Assembly: GCA_036676985.1 (NCBI GenBank)
Contig: JAKFBU010000033.1
Span: 1 to 26,018 of the forward strand
DNA from: Candidatus Sericytochromatia bacterium
Lineage (GTDB): Bacteria; Cyanobacteriota; Sericytochromatia; S15B-MN24; UBA4093
DNA length: 26,018 nt
Direction: 5' to 3'
The position numbers were made by a program, and so were the translations under genes. This document shows, piece after piece, positions 14,229 to 23,203 of the stretch (position 1 is its first letter; every line of letters begins with the position of its first letter). A model generated the notes under the pieces. The model did no database searches and was not told where the DNA came from. It saw only the letters and a list, made by a program, of their open reading frames with translations.

Positions 14229-15620
14229 ATGGACCCCCTGCACCGCGCCCTCGTCGACAGCGATCGCCGCCACGGTCTCTTCGGGCCGCACGCGACCGTG
14301 CTCGTCGGGTGCTCCGGGGGAGCGGACTCCCTGGCCCTGGCCCACGCCCTGCATCGGCTCGCCCCCGCCCACGGCTGGCGCGTCTCGGCGGCCTACGTCC
14401 ACCACGGCCTGCGGGCCGCGGCCGACGACGAGGCCGCACGGCTCACCGAGCTGATGGCGGCGTGGGGCATGCCCTTCCGGGTGGCCCGGGTCACGGTGGA
14501 CCCGCGCGGCCGCAGCCCCGAGGAGGCCGCCCGCGACGCGCGCTACGGGGCGCTGAACGCGATCGCCGCCGAACTCGGAGCCGGCATCCTCGCCCTCGGG
14601 CACCACGCCGACGACCAGATCGAGACGGTGCTCATGCGCCTCACCAAGGGCTCGGCCCTGCCGGGCCTGCTCGGGATCCCCGTCTCGCGGGCCCAGGCCG
14701 GGGGCCCACGCATCGTGCGCCCGCTCTTGGCCGTGTCCCGGGCCGAGATCGAGGCTTACCTGAACGACCATGGCCTCACATGGTTCGAGGATGCGACCAA
14801 CCAGGAGGAGGCCATCCCCCGCAACCGGCTGCGCCACCAGGTGGTCCCCGTCCTCAAGAGCCTGAACCCGGCCTTGCCCCGCACGCTCGCGACCATCCTC
14901 GACGTGCTCGCCGCCGAGAACGAATGGCTGGCCGAAGCGACCCGCGCGGCCTTTATGCCGCTGGTGCGCCACGCGGAGCCCGGCCTGATCGCCTGGGACG
15001 AGGCGGGCCTCGCGGGCCTCCCTCTCGCCCTCCAGCGCCGCGCCCTCGCCATGGCCTACGAACGGGTCCTGGGAACGCGCCGCGGGCTCACCACCGACCG
15101 GATCGAGCGCATGCGCGAGCCCGACGCGAAGGCGCTGGACCTCGGGGACGGCCTGCGCCTCTCCTCCGGGCACGGGCTGCGCTGGCTCGCGGCCCCCTTC
15201 ACCCCTCCGGCCCCGGTTCCGGCCGTGCCGGGGCAGCGCGTGGATCCCTGGGGCGTCCGGCTCGATCTGGTGGAGCCCGCTCAAGCCCCTCCGGGCGGCA
15301 AGGACGTGGTATTGTTCGATGCGGATCGGCTGCCGGGGCCCCTCGAGTGGCGCACGGCACGACCGCGCACGGATCGCTTCACGCCGTGGGGTCATCGAGA
15401 CTCCCATCCTTTGGAGCGCTTTCTCGCCAAGGAGCGCGTGCCGCCCCCCCTTCGAGAACGACTCCTGGTACTGGCCGTCGGAGACGAGATCTGGTGGGTG
15501 GTGGGCCTGAGACGAAGCCTCCACGCACCGATCGACGAGGGGACTCGACGGGTCCTCATGGCGCATCAAGACAGGCGAGCGTGGTTTGACATAGCCAATA
15601 CCGACCCCTACCATGTGTAG
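14229..15620 (+). CDS. tilS: tRNA(Ile)-lysidine synthetase
   Basis: PP-loop SGGADS, HHGLR, EEAARDARY, GHHADDQIET, RPLL, RNRLRH, plus TilS_C region. Confidence 0.96.
   Translation: MDPLHRALVDSDRRHGLFGPHATVLVGCSGGADSLALAHALHRLAPAHGWRVSAAYVHHGLRAAADDEAARLTELMAAWGMPFRVARVTVDPRGRSPEEAARDARYGALNAIAAELGAGILALGHHADDQIETVLMRLTKGSALPGLLGIPVSRAQAGGPRIVRPLLAVSRAEIEAYLNDHGLTWFEDATNQEEAIPRNRLRHQVVPVLKSLNPALPRTLATILDVLAAENEWLAEATRAAFMPLVRHAEPGLIAWDEAGLAGLPLALQRRALAMAYERVLGTRRGLTTDRIERMREPDAKALDLGDGLRLSSGHGLRWLAAPFTPPAPVPAVPGQRVDPWGVRLDLVEPAQAPPGGKDVVLFDADRLPGPLEWRTARPRTDRFTPWGHRDSHPLERFLAKERVPPPLRERLLVLAVGDEIWWVVGLRRSLHAPIDEGTRRVLMAHQDRRAWFDIANTDPYHV
15586..15614 (+). promoter_or_regulatory. sigma70 promoter for ftsH inside the 3' end of tilS
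   Basis: TTGACA-17 nt-TACCAT, about 30 nt upstream of the proposed ftsH TTG. Confidence 0.7.
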
Positions 15621-15645
15621 GCGTTTCGAGGAGGACGGCGACACT

Positions 15646-17475
15646 TTGAATAAAGTTTGGAAAAGCAGCGGTATCTATATCCTCTTGGTGTTGGTCGCAA
15701 TCGCGTTCATCACCTCGCTATGGAACAAGCCCCCCAGCAAGATCGACGAGGTCGCTTACTCGACCTTCCTGTCGCAGGTGGAAAAGGGCGAAATCAAGCG
15801 GGTCACCATCTCGAAGTCCACAGGAGTCATCCTGGCCGTGCCCAAGGAGGGCGAGCGCCATGCGAAGACCGTGGCCCCCGAGAATGATCCGCGCCTCTTC
15901 CCGGCCCTCGACAAGAGCGGCGTCGAGTACGAGATCAAGGCCCCCGACCAGTCCAGCTGGTGGGTGAGCCTGCTCTCGACGATCCTCGTGCCCGTCTTGA
16001 TCATCGTGGGTCTGTGGATCTTCATGCTCCGCCAGGCCCAGTCCGGCAGCAACCAGGCGATGAGCTTCGGCAAGTCGCGCGCCAAGATGATGGTCGAGAA
16101 CAAGCCGCGGGTCACCTTCGCGGACGTGGCGGGCATCGACGAGGCCAAGGCCGAGTTGCAGGAGATCGTGGAGTTCCTCAAGAGCCCCGAGAAGTTCCAG
16201 GCGCTCGGCGCCCGGATCCCCAAGGGCGTATTGCTGGTCGGCTCGCCCGGTACCGGTAAGACGCTGTTGGCCAAGGCCATCGCGGGCGAGGCCGGCGTGC
16301 CCTTCTTCTCGATCTCGGGATCGGACTTCGTCGAGATGTTCGTCGGCGTGGGTGCTTCCCGCGTCCGCGACCTCTTCGAGCAGGCCAAGAAGCACTCGCC
16401 CTGCATCGTCTTCGTGGACGAGATCGACGCGGTCGGCCGCCAGCGCGGCGCGGGCCTCGGCGGCGGCCACGACGAGCGCGAGCAGACCCTGAACCAGCTG
16501 CTCGTCGAGATGGACGGCTTCGAGCCCAGCCAGAGCGTCATCGTGATCGCGGCGACCAACCGTCCCGACATCCTGGACAGCGCCCTGACCCGGCCCGGCC
16601 GCTTCGACCGCCAGGTCATCGTGGACACCCCGGACGTCCAGGGCCGCGAGCAGATCCTCAAGGTCCACGTGAAGAACAAGCCCCTGGCCGAGGACATCCA
16701 GCTCGAGACCCTGGCCAAGCGCATCCCGGGCTTCACGGGGGCGGACATCATGAACATGTGCAACGAGGCCGCCCTGATCGCCGCGCGGAACAACCGCAAG
16801 GAGATCACGATGTACGACTTCGACGAGGCCGTCGACAAGATCTACGCGGGCCCCGAGCGCAAGAGCCGGATCATCTCCGACGAGGAGAAGGCGATCATCG
16901 CCTACCACGAGGTGGGTCACGCCCTGGTGGCGCGTCTCATCCCCGAGTCGGACAAGGTCCACAAGATCACCATCGTCAGCCGCGGTCGGGCGCTGGGTCT
17001 CACCTGGCACCTCCCCGAGGACCGGGTGCTCTTGAGCCAGTCCAAGATCGAGGCCATGATCGCGGGCCTTCTGGGCGGCCGCGCCGCCGAGGCCATCCGG
17101 TTCGGCGACGTGACGACCGGTGCCGGCAACGACATCGAGCGCGCCTCGGGCCTGGCCCGCAAGATGGTCACGGAGTGGGGCATGAGCGAGGTGCTGGGGC
17201 CCCTGGCCTTCGGCAAGCACAGCGAGCACGTCTTCATGGGCCGTGACTTCGGCTCGGACAAGGACTACTCGGAGCAGGTCGCGGGTCTCATCGACTCCGA
17301 GGTCAAGCGGATCGTGGAGGAGTCCTTCCAGAAGGCGAAGCGGCTCTTGACCGAGAACCGCGACAAGCTCGAGGCGATCGCCACCGAGCTGATGGCCAAG
17401 GAGACGCTCGACGCCGACCAGTTCGAGCTGCTCTTCACGGGCGGCCAGGAACAGCCGGAGCCGGCGCTGGCGTAA
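15646..17475 (+). CDS. ftsH: ATP-dependent zinc metalloprotease FtsH
   Basis: Two TM helices, Walker [18 protein letters not shown] pore loop, Walker B FVDEID, SRH ATNRPD, HEVGH zinc motif. TTG start after GAGGAGG preferred over ATG 15613. Confidence 0.98.
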
Positions 17476-17723: not shown

Positions 17724-18167
17724 CTACTCGTCCCGATCGCTGCCCTTCTCGAGCTCCATCCCGTAGATCTCCTGGTATTTGTACGAGTGCACCCACGGCA
17801 GCACCGTCCAGAAGCCCCAGAAGGCCGCGCTGGAGAAGGTCGGCGCATCCGGGCGGCCCGCAGCGATGGTGGACCCCACGATCAGGGCCGGCAACACGCT
17901 CCAGACGATGGCCGTGAACACGTCGAGCTCCCGCCGCACCACCCGCTCCTCGGTCCGGAAGCCGGGCTTCTTGGCCTTGAGGTGCAGCGACTGCACCGGG
18001 AAGTCGTACTTGTGCTCCACGATGTAGGTGTCGCCGGGCACGCCGTTGATGGTGACGCGCGCATCCTCGGGCTCCGTCGAGACCCGTAGGATCTGGTTGC
18101 CGCCGCTGCAGCCCGTGAGCAGCAGCGCCGCAAGGCCCACGCTCACCAAGTGCCGTCTGAGAATCAA
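17724..18167 (-). CDS. Lipoprotein with PEGA-like domain and C-terminal hydrophobic helices
   Basis: TTG 18167 after GGAGGA; lipobox LLTGC; LRVSTEPEDARVTING...LKAKKPGFR is a PEGA-type pattern. Confidence 0.75.
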   Translation of the reverse strand: MILRRHLVSVGLAALLLTGCSGGNQILRVSTEPEDARVTINGVPGDTYIVEHKYDFPVQSLHLKAKKPGFRTEERVVRRELDVFTAIVWSVLPALIVGSTIAAGRPDAPTFSSAAFWGFWTVLPWVHSYKYQEIYGMELEKGSDRDE

Positions 18168-18212
18168 AGTTCGTTCCTCCGTAATATCAGGGTTCACTCG
18201 TACGGGCCGCCC

Positions 18213-20063
18213 TTACTGCTTCCAGCTGTAGGGGCCCGCCGACAACGTACCGCGCTGTGACAGGGTGCCGTCCACGTTCTGCTTGAAAATCCGGAACACC
18301 GCGCGATCGCTGTCGTTGGCCGTGCGCGCCCCCAAGGTCGGCGTGATGCGCGTGCCGTTGTCGTCGGTCGAGAGGTCCGTGTTGGGCTTGGTCCCGATGC
18401 GCAGGAGCAAGGGCAGGCCGGGCGGCGTGTTGATGAGCACGGGCGAGACGCCGAAGCTGATGGTGGCCCCGGCCGCGGGCGCGACCGCCGCCGGCAGGTA
18501 GCTCGCCGAGGCGATGAACTTGTCCGCATCCACCGCGCCGCCGCGATACAGGGAGACCGAGAGGCGCCGCGCGGTGGGCGGGTAGTCCTCCACGCCGAGG
18601 GTGTAGACCGTGTCGGCGGTGCCGGAGGGGTCGTAGAGGTAGGTGCAGCTGTCGACGTTGGTGTTGGCCGCCACCGCGAAGCTGGCCGAGGCGCCGCGCG
18701 TGGTGGGCGCCGTCGCGCCCTGGGTCATGGTCGACACCCAGGTCTTGGTGCCCGCGTCATAGGTCGGGACCGTCAGCGTCCCGATGGTCGAGCCCGGCAG
18801 GTAGGCCAGGGGGTTGGGCGCGTTCAGGCTGTTGTTGTTGAGGGACGTGGTGTAGGGCTCCATCGCTGCCCGCCAGACGTAGCCCTCCATCTGCCGGGCG
18901 CCGAAGTCGCCGCCGGTGATGAGGTTGTTGTAGGCATCGCGCAGGGTGATCCGGAGGGTGTCCGTCTCGCCGGCCCGGCGCGGATAGGCCGAGATGCCGT
19001 CGTCCGAGCCGATCACGATGCTGCAGTTGGGCTGGCTCACGGCCCCCGGGTGCACGTTGACCTTGTGGAGGTCCACGGAGCCCGCCCCACCGAGGAGGCT
19101 CACCATCTCGCCACGCGCCAGGTAGTACTTGGCGTCGGCTCCTTCCGTCGAGCGGGTCGGCGTGAAGGTGATGGTGCCGTCCGAGTTGTCCGTGAGGGGA
19201 TAGAAGTCATAGCTGTCGACCTTCGTGAGGTCGAGGAAGTCGCTCGTCGCGGTGGGGGCGTTCGCCCGCACCACCACGACGCGATCGCCCTGGCGGACAT
19301 TGCTCGCCGCGAGGGTCAAGGGGTTGCCGGCGTCCACCTGGCGGGTGGTGTTCAGGACCGCCGCGCCGAAGCTCGGAGGCTGCGAGACGGTGATGGGCAA
19401 GGTGGTCGTGTTGCCCGGGATCACGCTGCCCGTCGCCGCGCCCACGCCGTAGCCCGCGAAGGTGTCCGAGGTATCGCTCAGCTCCGAGCCCCCGTTGTTG
19501 TTCTCATAGAAGGAGAGCACCGACGGTGCGCTCGCGGTGCCGCCGAGGTCCGAGCCCTTGAACACCAGCACCTTCTCCGCGACGTCCCCGATGACGGCCG
19601 TGACGTGCGTATCCGTGCCGTCCAGGGCGAAGGTGGCGGGCTCCCCGTCCACGGGCACCAGGCGCTTGCCAGGGCCGATGAACTGCTTGAAGGTGGTGCG
19701 CACCGTGATCCACGCCGTGCCGGGCGCGACGTCCTGGAAGAGCAGGTTGACCTGCCCGCCCGGCATGCCGACGGCCTCCGGGTTGCGGCAGACGAGGAAG
19801 GACTGGTGGCGGCCGAGGCTGTCGACGGCCATGACCTCGACGGCGTTGATGTAGCCGTTCTGGTAGGCGTACTGGGCCGCGCGCTCACCGAGCTTCGGCA
19901 GCGTGACGGGAACGACCAGGCTACCGGGAGCGGCCGGCTGCTCCACGCGGGTGGGCTGGACGCCGAGCGGCCCTGCCGGACGGACGGCGCATGCGGCCAG
20001 GAGCCCGAGGCTGGTGGCCAGTAGAGCGCTCGTCACGAAGGTCGCCGCGGGGTTGCGAAACAT
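18213..20063 (-). CDS. Large beta-rich lipoprotein (616 aa) with an Ig/invasin-like module
   Basis: ATG 20063 after GAGGAG; lipobox LLAAC; Thr/Gly/Asn-rich; LRITLRDAYNN resembles Big_1/filamin-type Ig motifs. Confidence 0.82.
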   Translation of the reverse strand: MFRNPAATFVTSALLATSLGLLAACAVRPAGPLGVQPTRVEQPAAPGSLVVPVTLPKLGERAAQYAYQNGYINAVEVMAVDSLGRHQSFLVCRNPEAVGMPGGQVNLLFQDVAPGTAWITVRTTFKQFIGPGKRLVPVDGEPATFALDGTDTHVTAVIGDVAEKVLVFKGSDLGGTASAPSVLSFYENNNGGSELSDTSDTFAGYGVGAATGSVIPGNTTTLPITVSQPPSFGAAVLNTTRQVDAGNPLTLAASNVRQGDRVVVVRANAPTATSDFLDLTKVDSYDFYPLTDNSDGTITFTPTRSTEGADAKYYLARGEMVSLLGGAGSVDLHKVNVHPGAVSQPNCSIVIGSDDGISAYPRRAGETDTLRITLRDAYNNLITGGDFGARQMEGYVWRAAMEPYTTSLNNNSLNAPNPLAYLPGSTIGTLTVPTYDAGTKTWVSTMTQGATAPTTRGASASFAVAANTNVDSCTYLYDPSGTADTVYTLGVEDYPPTARRLSVSLYRGGAVDADKFIASASYLPAAVAPAAGATISFGVSPVLINTPPGLPLLLRIGTKPNTDLSTDDNGTRITPTLGARTANDSDRAVFRIFKQNVDGTLSQRGTLSAGPYSWKQ

Positions 20064-20074
20064 GCCGACTCTCC

Positions 20075-21211
20075 TCAGTTGGAAACGCGCCAGGGCGCGG
20101 TTTGAACGGGTAGGTTGCCAGGGGCCGCCGAGGGCATCGTCACCGGGACGCTCAGGGAGGACTGGCTCGAAGGGGGAACGATGACCTCGGCGAGGATGAC
20201 GGCCCCGGAGGTCGTCACCGTCACGGTCCGCTCGCTCTGGACGTTGCCCGAGGTGGCCCGCAGGATGGTCGTGCCGGGACGGAACGGGCGCAGGAGGCCG
20301 TATTCGTCCACCGAGGCGACCGACGGGGCGCTCGAGGACCACACCACGGCGTCCACGTCGCGCTTGCCGCCGTCCGAGAAGGTGGCCTTGACCGTCAGGG
20401 GCACGGCCCGGTAGGCCTGGAAGGGCAGCCGCCACTGCGGCAACTCCAGCTTGGTGATGACCTCGAAGTTCCGGTACTTGCGGATGCCGTCCACCATGAG
20501 CTCGAGCTGTCCCGTGACGGCGCCGGCGGGGACCGTGGTCTCGATCTCCTCGTCGCTGAGCCGAGTGGTTAATGTGGTGGTGGCGGTGTTGGTCGCGGGC
20601 ACGCCCGAGAACTTGACGGTGTAGGCGTGGTCCAGGGTGCGCCCGAAGTTCGCCCCGGAGATGAGCACCTTGCAGCCCACGCCGCCGTAGGCCGGAGCGA
20701 CGGTAGTGATCTCGGGCTGGATGAGGGGCGTCATCGTGATGGGCGCGACGTTGATGTTGTTGGCATAGATATCGACCGTGCCGGTTCCGAGGGCGATGGG
20801 CGTCGTGTTCTCGGTGGGCGTGGACTCTCGGTACATCTTGGCGACCACCTGGACGCCCATGGTCGCCTTGACCCGGAAGAAGGCCTGCGACGCGAGGTTG
20901 CCCTCGCTCGGGCGCGGGACCGTGGCCTTGGCTATTTCACGACCGGCGGAGTCGTAGAGCCAAATGATGGCCTTGCTCGCGCTGAAAGGGATGGCTGCCA
21001 CCGTGCGATCCGGCCACTTGATCTGGATCTGGAGCGTGCCCTCGGCGGCCGGCGTGACGATCCGGTAGCCCGGGTCAGAGGCCGCCGCGACGGAGGTCGG
21101 CGCCGACGTCGAGGGTGGGGTGGCCTGGGCACAGGCCACGAGCAGGGCCGAGAGCGCGAGGCTTCCGAGGGCGCGGGCGTGGCGGAGGGGGTTGGAGAGC
21201 CGCTGAGACAT
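20075..21211 (-). CDS. Lipoprotein with IPT/TIG and Big_2 Ig-like domains (378 aa)
   Basis: ATG 21211; lipobox LLVAC; IPT/TIG PEITTVAP..G..G.KVLISGANFG...VP.GA.TG; Big_2 VVWSSSAPSVASVD..G......PGTT...ATSG. Confidence 0.88.
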   Translation of the reverse strand: MSQRLSNPLRHARALGSLALSALLVACAQATPPSTSAPTSVAAASDPGYRIVTPAAEGTLQIQIKWPDRTVAAIPFSASKAIIWLYDSAGREIAKATVPRPSEGNLASQAFFRVKATMGVQVVAKMYRESTPTENTTPIALGTGTVDIYANNINVAPITMTPLIQPEITTVAPAYGGVGCKVLISGANFGRTLDHAYTVKFSGVPATNTATTTLTTRLSDEEIETTVPAGAVTGQLELMVDGIRKYRNFEVITKLELPQWRLPFQAYRAVPLTVKATFSDGGKRDVDAVVWSSSAPSVASVDEYGLLRPFRPGTTILRATSGNVQSERTVTVTTSGAVILAEVIVPPSSQSSLSVPVTMPSAAPGNLPVQTAPWRVSN

Positions 21212-21221
21212 GACCGGCCCC

Positions 21222-21752
21222 CTACTGCAGCTGGATGATGGCCGTGGCGTCATCGGTCACGGTGACCGAGACGCTCGCGACCTTGGAGGGGTCCCGGCGC
21301 GAGGTGGCCGTCAGCACCACGGGCACGGTGCTCGGCTTGGCCCCGCCCGTCGTCTGGACCGTGCTCACGAGGCCCCGCGCGTCCACCTGCACGAGCTCGG
21401 GCTGGGACGAGGTCCAGACCAGATCCCCGTCGAGCAGGCCCCCGTCCTCGAGGACCAGGCGCACGTCGAGTTGCAGCCAGGTGGGAAAGCCCGCCGATCC
21501 GAGGTTGGGGTTCTCGGGCGGCACGCTGATGGTGGCCGTCTTGGGCTGAATGGTCAGGGAGACGACCTTGAGCTGGGATCTATCCGGGGTCGTGGTGGCC
21601 TGGGTGGCCGGCGGAGTCGCGGTGGGGGCGGGGGTTGCGGTGGCGCCCGAGCCACCGATGGTTCGATCCAAGGGTGCCGGCGGCAGCGAGTCGCAGCTCG
21701 CGAGGCCCCAAACGCTCGTCAGCAGGGCCAGAGAAAGTACGAGAGGACGCAT
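21222..21752 (-). CDS. Small lipoprotein with Pro/Thr linker and one Big_2 Ig-like domain
   Basis: GAGG Shine-Dalgarno; lipobox LASC; TATPAPTATPP linker; LVWTSSQPELVQVDARGLV...ATS. Confidence 0.85.
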   Translation of the reverse strand: MRPLVLSLALLTSVWGLASCDSLPPAPLDRTIGGSGATATPAPTATPPATQATTTPDRSQLKVVSLTIQPKTATISVPPENPNLGSAGFPTWLQLDVRLVLEDGGLLDGDLVWTSSQPELVQVDARGLVSTVQTTGGAKPSTVPVVLTATSRRDPSKVASVSVTVTDDATAIIQLQ

Positions 21753-21880: not shown

Positions 21881-23203
21881 ATGACCAAACACGTCCGTAC
21901 GCTGGGAGTCCTTTGCCTGGGGGTGGCGCTGGCCGGATGCCAGGGTATTCCAGGCCTCTTCGGTCCGGTCGCGGGCGGGCCCGGCGGGGATTCGCCCTTC
22001 CCGGACAGCGGACTGGTCGCCAACAACGCGGCCTCCTTGAGCGGACGGGTCTTCGCTCCTTCCTCGCTGGTAGCCAACAACTCGGCCTCTCTCATCGGCA
22101 ACAACTCCGCGTCGCTCATCGGCAACAACTCGGCGGCGCTGGTCTCGAACAACGCGGCGGCCTATCGCACGGCGGCCGTCCAGGAGCTGCCCGTCATCAA
22201 GGCGGTGGTCGAGGCCGTCCGCGACGGCCAGGTCATCGCCAAGGCGACCACCGACGACACGGGCCGCTACACGCTCCCCAACCTGCCCCGCGAGAAGGCC
22301 TTCCTGGTCCGGGCCTCGTTCACGCTGGACGGGCAGAAGTTCCAGGAGCTGGCGATCGCCAAGACCTTCACGCAGCAGTCGGATCACCGCGTGAACAGCG
22401 CCTCGACGCTCGTGACGGCCAAGGTCGTCAAGCAGGGCACGGCGCTCGATCAGGTGAACATGACCAAGTACAACGACACGGTCAACCTGGTCGCCGCGGC
22501 TCAGACCTCCATCCAGCCCAGCGACCTCACGTCGACGGACAACAGCGCGTACGCCTTCGAGCAGATCGCCGAGTCCAACGAGGTGGTGAGCGAGACCTAC
22601 ACCGAGGCCATCACGCCGACCACCACCGCTCCGTCGCCCACCCCGTCGCCCACGGCGACGCCGGTGACCTACTCGCCCAAGGAGTACTTCTTCCCGCCCT
22701 CCGGCACGGCGCGGGGCGAGTTCCGCCGGACGGTGACCCAGGGCGCTCAGGTCGCCACCTCGAGCTACAGCATCCGGGTCACGGCCTACTCGCTCTCGGA
22801 AGCGACGCTCCGTCAGACCCTCGACGGCTTCGACTTCGACTCCGTGCTCCAGGTGTCGGGCAGCGTCGTGAAGGTCGGCACCCCGACCGAGCAGGGTCCC
22901 GTCTTCACCATGACCCTGGGCACGCCCGTCTTCACGGCGGAGGGCACGATCGTGACGCCCGCCGGCGCCTCGGATCCCGTCACGTACAAGCTGGTGGCGG
23001 CCAGTGAGCAGGTGACGGTCCCGGCCGGGACCTACACCTGCGTGCGCCTGCTCGAGACCACCGGTACCGGCGCTTCTCAGACCCAGCGCACGGTGTGGTA
23101 CGCCAAGGGCATCGGCATCGCCCCGGTGAAGGTACTCTCCAGCACGCAGAACGGCGGGACCACCACGACCACCGAGACGGTGATGACGTCCTTCACGCCC
23201 TAA
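21881..23203 (+). CDS. Lipoprotein (440 aa) with Asn-Asn octapeptide repeats, carboxypeptidase-regulatory-like domain, PT linker and C-terminal DUF3108-like beta domain
   Basis: ATG after GGAGGAGG; lipobox LAGC; ATTDDTGRYTL; TPSPTATP; VTVPAGTY.C...WYAKGIG..VK. Confidence 0.88.
   Translation: MTKHVRTLGVLCLGVALAGCQGIPGLFGPVAGGPGGDSPFPDSGLVANNAASLSGRVFAPSSLVANNSASLIGNNSASLIGNNSAALVSNNAAAYRTAAVQELPVIKAVVEAVRDGQVIAKATTDDTGRYTLPNLPREKAFLVRASFTLDGQKFQELAIAKTFTQQSDHRVNSASTLVTAKVVKQGTALDQVNMTKYNDTVNLVAAAQTSIQPSDLTSTDNSAYAFEQIAESNEVVSETYTEAITPTTTAPSPTPSPTATPVTYSPKEYFFPPSGTARGEFRRTVTQGAQVATSSYSIRVTAYSLSEATLRQTLDGFDFDSVLQVSGSVVKVGTPTEQGPVFTMTLGTPVFTAEGTIVTPAGASDPVTYKLVAASEQVTVPAGTYTCVRLLETTGTGASQTQRTVWYAKGIGIAPVKVLSSTQNGGTTTTTETVMTSFTP
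22067..22162 (+). repeat. Four in-frame 24-bp tandem repeats encoding L[VI][AGS]NN[SA]A[SA]; a fifth copy at 22013-22036
   Basis: LVANNSAS LIGNNSAS LIGNNSAA LVSNNAAA; the AACAAC core is constant while synonymous positions vary. Confidence 0.9.

Follow-up and report, generated by a model that had tools for sequence, protein, structure and literature searches.

Three lipoproteins of a Sericytochromatia bacterium as a candidate chain joined by inter-protein β-strand complementation

Introduction

Can lipoproteins encoded side by side lend one another a β-strand and so be joined in the order of their genes? The question is raised by three adjacent genes, here called A, B and C, in a stretch of 26,018 nucleotides (nt) from Candidatus Sericytochromatia bacterium (contig JAKFBU010000033.1; the whole stretch is hereafter called the window). 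The host is an uncultured, non-photosynthetic relative of cyanobacteria, and its genome (G000) is metagenome-assembled, with completeness 100 and contamination 5.09. A first-pass annotation of the window had noticed that the C-terminal strand of each upstream protein resembles the first strand of the next protein, and had likened the set to type V pili. In those pili, as described in two sources (PMC13655056; PMC5789003), the pilins are lipoproteins with two transthyretin-like domains whose first strand, the “anchor strand”, comes next to the lipidated Cys; once an Arg-gingipain has cleaved the loop behind this strand, the strand is replaced by C-terminal strands of the next subunit.

The reading that we favor, with a rough probability of 60%, is that A, B and C assemble head-to-tail as a 1:1:1 chain by inter-protein β-strand complementation. 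The tail/head resemblance carries weight because of its context, namely a conserved three-gene module, a genome-wide rule that couples the tail of one lipoprotein to the N-terminal domain of the next, and natural fusions in which the two are joined in one polypeptide.

Results

Genes A, B and C are consecutive on the minus strand with intergenic gaps of 10 and 11 nt, and each product has a hydrophobic leader and a lipobox (LASC in A, LVAC in B, LAAC in C). The close spacing of three putative lipoprotein genes is thus as the first-pass annotation had described it, by pattern in the case of the lipoboxes, and the four peptides that it had quoted are exact translations of the minus strand. The three proteins are most likely made from one operon. 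Their features, in window coordinates, are the following.

21222-21752, minus strand: gene A, 176 amino acids (aa), with a putative lipobox Cys at 21693-21695, a Pro/Thr-rich linker, one Big_2-like domain and a C-terminal extra strand.
21225-21245, minus strand: tail of A, TAIIQLQ, the last seven residues, after the last Big_2 strand and a three-residue turn.
20075-21211, minus strand: gene B, 378 aa, with a putative lipobox Cys27 at 21131-21133.
20717-21049, minus strand: N-terminal domain (NTD) of B, residues 55-165, a seven-strand β-sandwich in the AlphaFold2 model.
21017-21037, minus strand: first strand of B, TLQIQIK, followed by an invariant Trp-Pro (WPDR at 21005-21016).
20444-20716, minus strand: IPT/TIG domain of B, residues 166-256 (Pfam TIG, expectation value (E) 1.1e-6; model; Z 10-11 to TIG domains in VIA comparison).
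20213-20404, minus strand: Big_2 domain of B, residues 270-333 (Pfam Big_2, E 1.5e-6; model).
20078-20212, minus strand: C-terminal tail of B, residues 334-378, of low model confidence.
20132-20158, minus strand: SLSVPVTMP in the tail of B, a mimic of the first strand of C (from the translation).
18213-20063, minus strand: gene C, 616 aa, with a putative lipobox Cys25 at 19989-19991.
19380-19931, minus strand: NTD of C, residues 45-228, a divergent NTD with an insertion.
19896-19922, minus strand: first strand of C, SLVVPVTLP, followed by KLGER at 19881-19895.
18216-19379, minus strand: residues 229-616 of C, predicted as a rod of Ig-like domains, one TIG-like and then invasin/intimin-like.

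The resemblance between tail and head was set against chance with 1000 random open reading frames (ORFs) of the same genome, for each of which the best ungapped 8-mer match in the N-terminal region was scored. Only 1 of the 1000 random heads matched the tail of B as well as the head of C did, so that for this pair the proposed match of donor and acceptor strands holds up. The tail of A paired with the head of C was at chance (721/1000 random heads as good), and the tail of B does not match its own head either (178/1000), so that, at the level of sequence, a stalk polymer of B would not be expected.

The same pairing recurs in related loci. The A-B-C module was found in 12 loci, with identity down to about 30% and with both tail motifs kept. 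B has orthologues in three other genomes (G001, 74%; G004, 56%; G007, 54%), flanked by orthologues of A and C in the same order, while more distant relatives of C, about 30% identical, are encoded at another place in G000 (contig C15) and in G001, G002, G005, G008, G016, G018 and G022; a B-like gene precedes each of these distant relatives, and an A-like gene was seen in 10 of the modules related to that of the window. The pattern G-x-V-x-x-x-hydrophobic-x-hydrophobic-P is kept in every one of the 11 B tails and 12 C heads, and the register of the best ungapped alignment between B tail and C head is identical in 11/11 loci. When 12-mers were compared with 1000 random heads per locus, the numbers of random heads scoring at least as well were 0, 42, 32, 2, 0, 12, 0, 2, 498, 7 and 6, placing the match in the top 5% of random heads in 10/11 loci, the exception being G008 (498/1000). 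A relationship between the NTDs of B and C, as had been proposed, is suggested by a weak profile-profile match of the NTD family to the C family (probability 22%, E 9.4e-4, 77 columns, in the expected register), whereas BLASTP of B against C gave nothing significant and had the tail/head segment as its top local match (E 0.24).

The predicted folds are compatible with such an exchange. In the AlphaFold2 model of B (mean predicted local distance difference test, pLDDT, 73.5), residues 1-52 are a disordered linker, the strands of the NTD run from 57-65 to 153-159, and the tail is of low confidence in the monomer (block means of pLDDT 59, 48, 49, 45 and 40). The model of C (mean pLDDT 78) is all-β with its first strand at 47-55, and in both proteins the first strand is modeled directly after a disordered linker. 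The TIG and Big_2 domains of B exceed the Pfam gathering scores (28.9 bits vs a cut-off of 20.9, and 28.5 vs 22.8), the matches of A lie below the cut-off (Big-like, E 0.0087; Big_2, E 0.084, 13.3 bits), and a Pfam scan of C gave no match. Residues 228-616 of C aligned with FdeC (Z 9.7, root-mean-square deviation (rmsd) 5.2, 180 residues aligned) and with invasin (Z 9.6, rmsd 5.3, 176 aligned) in the VIA structure comparison, which for C effectively covers these residues and barely tests residues 1-227. Other look-ups were set aside: Foldseek with the whole model of C against the PDB returned generic Ig/FN3 arrays at low template-modeling (TM) scores, two sub-threshold NCBIfam matches were rejected (LIC10067_lipo, 22.7 bits vs a cut-off of 200; CpaD, 14.9 bits), and the best scores of the B NTD in the ESM Atlas (0.81-0.85) were below the level that counts as more than a lead.

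Further context for the window proteins comes from the rest of the genome. A profile of the B NTD found 17 lipoproteins among 37,566 six-frame ORFs of G000, with the domain placed after the lipobox and a linker. Every one of the 17 genes has an adjoining same-strand upstream gene, at gaps of about -24 to +17 nt, and every upstream product has a lipobox. In 14/17 cases this upstream protein ends with a last Big_2-type strand, a turn of 3-4 residues and one extra strand, whose pattern (G-x-hydrophobic-x-hydrophobic-x-hydrophobic-x) is that of the NTD first strand, and the donor tail stops exactly where the acceptor goes on with Trp-Pro. The last 8 residues of the upstream protein lie above the 95th percentile of 2411 background C-termini in 16/17 cases and above the 99th in 13/17. 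Across the 17 aligned NTDs, only Trp-Pro and one later Pro are invariant. Conversely, NTD proteins with no NTD gene downstream end directly after the last Big_2 strand. In a census that lost one donor to a composition filter, the two-strand C-terminal pattern (last strand, turn, extra strand) was present in 53 of 4182 ORFs of G000; an NTD gene came next after 14 of these 53, as against 2 of the 4129 ORFs that lack the pattern.

These counts bear on another use of such a strand, namely as a signal for sorting or export, for example to an outer-membrane or surface-exposure machine, which would read the NTD first strand too. C-terminal β-signals exist in other systems, and both elements stand at chain ends of lipoproteins. 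We nevertheless regard this explanation as very improbable: a signal of this kind would not be expected almost only before an NTD gene, other Big_2-ending lipoproteins of the same family have no tail, and in the fusions described below the tail is internal, where a terminal signal could not act.

In three further places of G000 the rule extends to three-gene chains (C23, 4279-9592; C4, 131098-136209; C56, 68556-72100), in which the middle protein has both a head and a tail. Since head and tail of these middle proteins are of the same class, they could conceivably self-polymerize. In the C23 chain, the last protein has apparent NHL-type repeats at its end. On contig C39, two minus-strand ORFs (108424-108882 and 110188-110565) have a donor-like C-terminus, with a turn and an alternating strand, and no downstream NTD gene by the profile; they may point to a further, more divergent class of acceptor.

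Beyond this genome, the NTD profile (E <= 1e-5) matched in 42/46 other Sericytochromatia genomes and in 0/254 genomes from the rest of the phylum. In a search of 1.84 billion cluster representatives, 1338 matched the profile at E <= 0.001, of which 286 did so at E <= 1e-10; in 148 of the 150 best the start of the domain lies no later than residue 99. For 16 of 18 NTD genes selected by hand in 17 further genomes of the class, an upstream ORF was available, and 11 of these 16 ORFs encode a donor-type tail. Taken from the sequences, a docking rule appears to be used throughout Sericytochromatia, in which the gene for a lipoprotein built as lipobox, linker, first strand and Trp-Pro comes right after that of a lipoprotein with a mimic of this strand at its C-terminus. 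Public labels of the group appear inconsistent (loci L028/L029; P0009, P0015), as some close relatives of G000 bear the names of photosynthetic cyanobacterial genera and others in the same gene family that of Candidatus Sericytochromatia.

Natural fusions bear most directly on where the tail would go. In G018, A-like and B-like parts are joined in one lipoprotein of 508 aa that is followed by a C-like gene; by BLASTP, residues 175-508 of the fusion match 56-381 of the separate B encoded on contig C15 at 45% identity (E 2e-93), and the N-terminal part consists of an A-type Big_2 domain with an A-type tail. A single Gly links this tail to the conserved, Pro-containing start of the second strand of B. 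A second fusion from another source (P0022, 506 aa, 64% identical over 99% coverage) has the identical junction, and absent from both are the B signal peptide, the linker, the first strand and Trp-Pro. The fusions carry the tail and no first strand of their own, which shows that a donor tail can serve the NTD as first strand, and the missing Trp-Pro indicates that this segment is not needed for the fold. No fused form of B and C was found among 16 C homologues of 485-645 aa (search range 338-1078 aa).

The existence of both fused and split forms means that gene fission or fusion did happen, and it invites the view that the tails are evolutionary leftovers, remnants of fission that duplicate the boundary strand in proteins acting separately. 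A remnant would hardly keep the same pattern, the same length and the same end point where the NTDs of the paralogues are just 18-32% identical, nor would it be present if an NTD gene follows and absent if none does, and the tight coupling of the gene pairs also speaks against this view; we therefore give it a slim chance.

Several observations weigh against our reading, and some of them suit a different geometry, edge-strand augmentation, in which the donor tail would pair alongside the acceptor's own first strand with nothing displaced or cleaved. Over the 17 pairs of G000 the tails carry a net charge of -17 (acidic) and the heads one of +18 (basic), with D/E/N/Q at position 8 in 13/17 tails and R/K in 14/17 heads; opposite charges and a complementary position 8 fit side-by-side pairing too. 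The Trp-Pro, invariant in all 17 split acceptors, is odd for a segment to be discarded and would be expected if the head stays in the fold. The Pro and the Arg-containing loop that the first-pass annotation had pointed out after the first strand are present in B and C of the window, but the Arg is not universal: it follows the first strand in 8/11 B homologues, 11/12 C homologues and 15/17 paralogous NTDs, and no basic residue at all stands between Trp-Pro and the next strand in 3/11 B homologues or after the first strand in 1/12 C homologues. On the window alone, the match of A tail to B head is within chance (95/1000 random heads equally good), with its best register two residues off from the one first noted. 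The anticipated covariation of B tail and C first strand was not borne out, the cognate head being top-scoring for 1 of 11 tails, and over the 17 tail/NTD pairs the cognate sum of 191 compares with 160 +/- 16 in permuted pairs (fraction 0.03), a weak pair specificity. In the sample from other genomes, 5/16 upstream proteins have no recognizable donor tail and 2 more NTD genes have no upstream ORF. All compared loci are kin, so that the locus counts overstate independence, and the lipoprotein status of A, B and C is pattern-based.

The fusions provide, in our view, the strongest argument for replacement over side-by-side pairing. Both hold one strand only, of the tail type, without the acceptor strand and Trp-Pro, so that the domain would fold with the tail as first strand and not as an added one; moreover, the tail has the exact length and the hydrophobic register of the head. 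We thus consider augmentation unlikely and strand replacement the better account of the fusions.

The pairing of B and C was also modeled, as the first-pass annotation had suggested, by co-folding C residues 62-235, with everything up to the Arg and hence the first strand deleted, with B residues 258-378. The score was 0.49 (runs 0.77, 0.44 and 0.49) against 0.00 for the best of three controls, the runs agreed in at least 57% of contacts, and the pLDDT of the partner was at least 57, which amounts to weak support. The mark used was passed by 58/80 solved complexes and by 2/110 mismatched pairs; at scores <=0.60, 7 of the 80 solved complexes passed, as did both passing mismatches, and these benchmark counts hold roughly only, as custom alignments were used here. 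The co-fold gave no contacts and its interface was not reported, so that the position of the tail is not shown by it, which is a further point against the proposed replacement.

Two neighboring genes were considered as additional members of the module and rejected. Gene D (17724-18197, minus strand), 15 nt after C, encodes a 157-aa putative lipoprotein with a lipobox LTGC, hydrophobic segments toward the C-terminus and a PEGA match below threshold (E 0.014). It stands beside C in G001, not in G004, G007 or the paralogous modules, and is probably outside the conserved unit because it accompanies the module in G001 only. The divergent gene upstream (21881-23203, plus strand) encodes a 440-aa putative lipoprotein with short Asn/Ala/Ser-rich repeats near its N-terminus and sub-threshold CarboxypepD_reg and DUF3108-like matches; it too adjoins the module in G001, not in G004, G007 or the paralogous loci. 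Farther away, a 620-aa ORF (15613-17475, plus strand) appears from its sequence motifs to encode an FtsH-like membrane protease, probably an ordinary housekeeping neighbor with no apparent link to the module.

Discussion

We propose that the extra C-terminal strand of A would fill the first-strand slot of the N-terminal β-sandwich of B, and that the disordered C-terminal tail of B would do likewise in the NTD of C. A would remain the lipid-anchored base because it has no acceptor domain, B would be the adaptor between A and C, and C, with its invasin/FdeC-like Ig rod, would form the distal and probably adhesive part. The tail would physically replace the acceptor's own first strand. With less confidence, and by analogy with type V pili, we suggest that what is displaced, from the lipid anchor through the linker and first strand to Trp-Pro, is removed by cleavage rather than looped out. 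The anchor-adaptor-tip chain of the first-pass annotation survives in this form, its logic being conserved in the orthologous and paralogous modules, whereas the fiber that it had envisaged does not, as no polymer is indicated.

A bolder version would extend this proposal to a class-wide “plug and socket” of Sericytochromatia, a convergent counterpart of type V pilus assembly in which acceptors shed a lipid-anchored first strand marked by the invariant Trp-Pro and are captured by the C-terminal strand of the protein encoded upstream, giving modular surface fibrils in gene order; the chains at C23, C4 and C56 could then yield homopolymeric pili. We hold this version to be speculative and rather doubtful.

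If strand complementation is true, a second and apparently independent lineage joins different proteins in fixed order, instead of polymerizing a single pilin, by a principle that one source claims for Bacteroidia only (PMC13655056). It would also give the first functional handle on an uncharacterized NTD family, and a tail followed by the head of the next gene would be a simple sequence rule for predicting partner surface proteins in uncultured bacteria. The short natural peptide/domain pairs might be of use in protein engineering. The open-access literature, a scope that leaves supplements and most subscription journals outside, yielded no account of a system of this kind in Sericytochromatia or cyanobacteria.

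Among known systems, type V pili are the closest in principle, and the question arises whether the window encodes a true, homologous type V pilus, that is, a polymerizing fiber of pilins matured by an Arg-specific protease. The putative lipoprotein precursors, the first strand right after the anchor and the Arg after this strand in B and C of the window all speak for it, as does the fold of the B NTD. In VIA comparison this domain aligned with two type V pilin N-domains, that of Mfa3 (Z 8.7, with an rmsd of 2.7 over 99 residues) and that of Mfa2 (Z 8.3, with an rmsd of 3.0 over 100 residues), and with two Bacteroidales fimbrial/adhesin proteins (Z 8.4 and 8.1); BT2657 and BDI_3522 are among the structures aligned. 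Nevertheless, a Z of about 8 may mean merely a common arrangement, and unrelated sandwiches score alike, the ExsB pilotin reaching Z 10.4, the highest value, and CBM20 Z 8.0; next after ExsB came a Bacteroides fragment (Z 9.1) and a DUF4876 protein (Z 9.0). FimA, Mfa_like_1 and Mfa2 had no match in A, B or C by Pfam scan, and PF06321, PF13149 and PF08842 had none in G000, whereas the control in Bacteroides thetaiotaomicron was positive. The gingipain-type family PF01364 (Peptidase_C25) matched neither in G000 nor in any of 14 control genomes, which makes this search uninformative because the controls were silent as well. The two-domain pilin architecture is not apparent either, as B shows no pilin-type C-domain and the rest of it is TIG and Big_2 by Pfam and model; and the lack of a match between the tail of B and its own head, together with the incompletely conserved Arg, completes a case that leaves a homologous type V pilus extremely improbable. 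The weak fold resemblance to the Mfa pilins, as modeled, would fit a convergent origin or a very distant relationship.

The likenesses to type V pili are nevertheless several. In both systems the precursors are lipoproteins, here putative ones, with the first strand of the N-terminal sandwich placed after the lipidated Cys as judged from sequence and model; in both, a C-terminal donor strand from a neighbor replaces the first strand (here as proposed) and the base keeps its lipid anchor, an arrangement for which type V pili have an anchor pilin without a cleavage site (PMC13655056; PMC5789003); and the order of anchor, adaptor and tip would be shared. The differences are equally clear. Donor and acceptor are here on different, non-pilin proteins of Big_2, TIG and Ig-like domains, the donor tail of B is modeled as free and not self-complemented, the Arg that follows the first strand is incompletely conserved, and the A-B-C operon is not predicted to give a homopolymer. 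The tail mimics in sequence the strand that it would replace, whereas the termini of Mfa pilins have low similarity according to PMC13655056. The host, too, is of the class Sericytochromatia, outside Bacteroidota as the first-pass annotation had anticipated, whereas type V pili, or strand exchange among lipoprotein precursors, are stated in that source to be unique to the class Bacteroidia.

Chaperone-usher pili also complete an Ig-like fold with a foreign strand, and the fit of strand and groove sets their subunit order; their donor is an N-terminal extension, the acceptor is born without the strand, and assembly depends on an usher and a periplasmic chaperone. The proposed chain would share with them the Ig-like fold completed by a strand from another polypeptide and would differ in having a C-terminal donor and an acceptor with a first strand of its own. 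TasA forms a chaperone-free donor-strand filament. Archaeal threads and cannulae are described as filaments in which a terminal strand of each subunit is inserted into its neighbor (PMC9715654; 10.1101/2024.12.30.630787). All three are single-subunit homopolymers and not lipoproteins, unlike the chain considered here, in which each of three different putative lipoproteins would take part once. Residues 228-616 of C, its distal two thirds, align as a model with the Ig-like rods of inverse-autotransporter adhesins, the group of invasin, intimin and FdeC, although C has no β-barrel anchor and no sequence-family match; its attachment would be through its lipid anchor or through B. On the best reading, then, the A-B-C system would be an analogue of the type V pilus in its mode of assembly, without belonging to that family.

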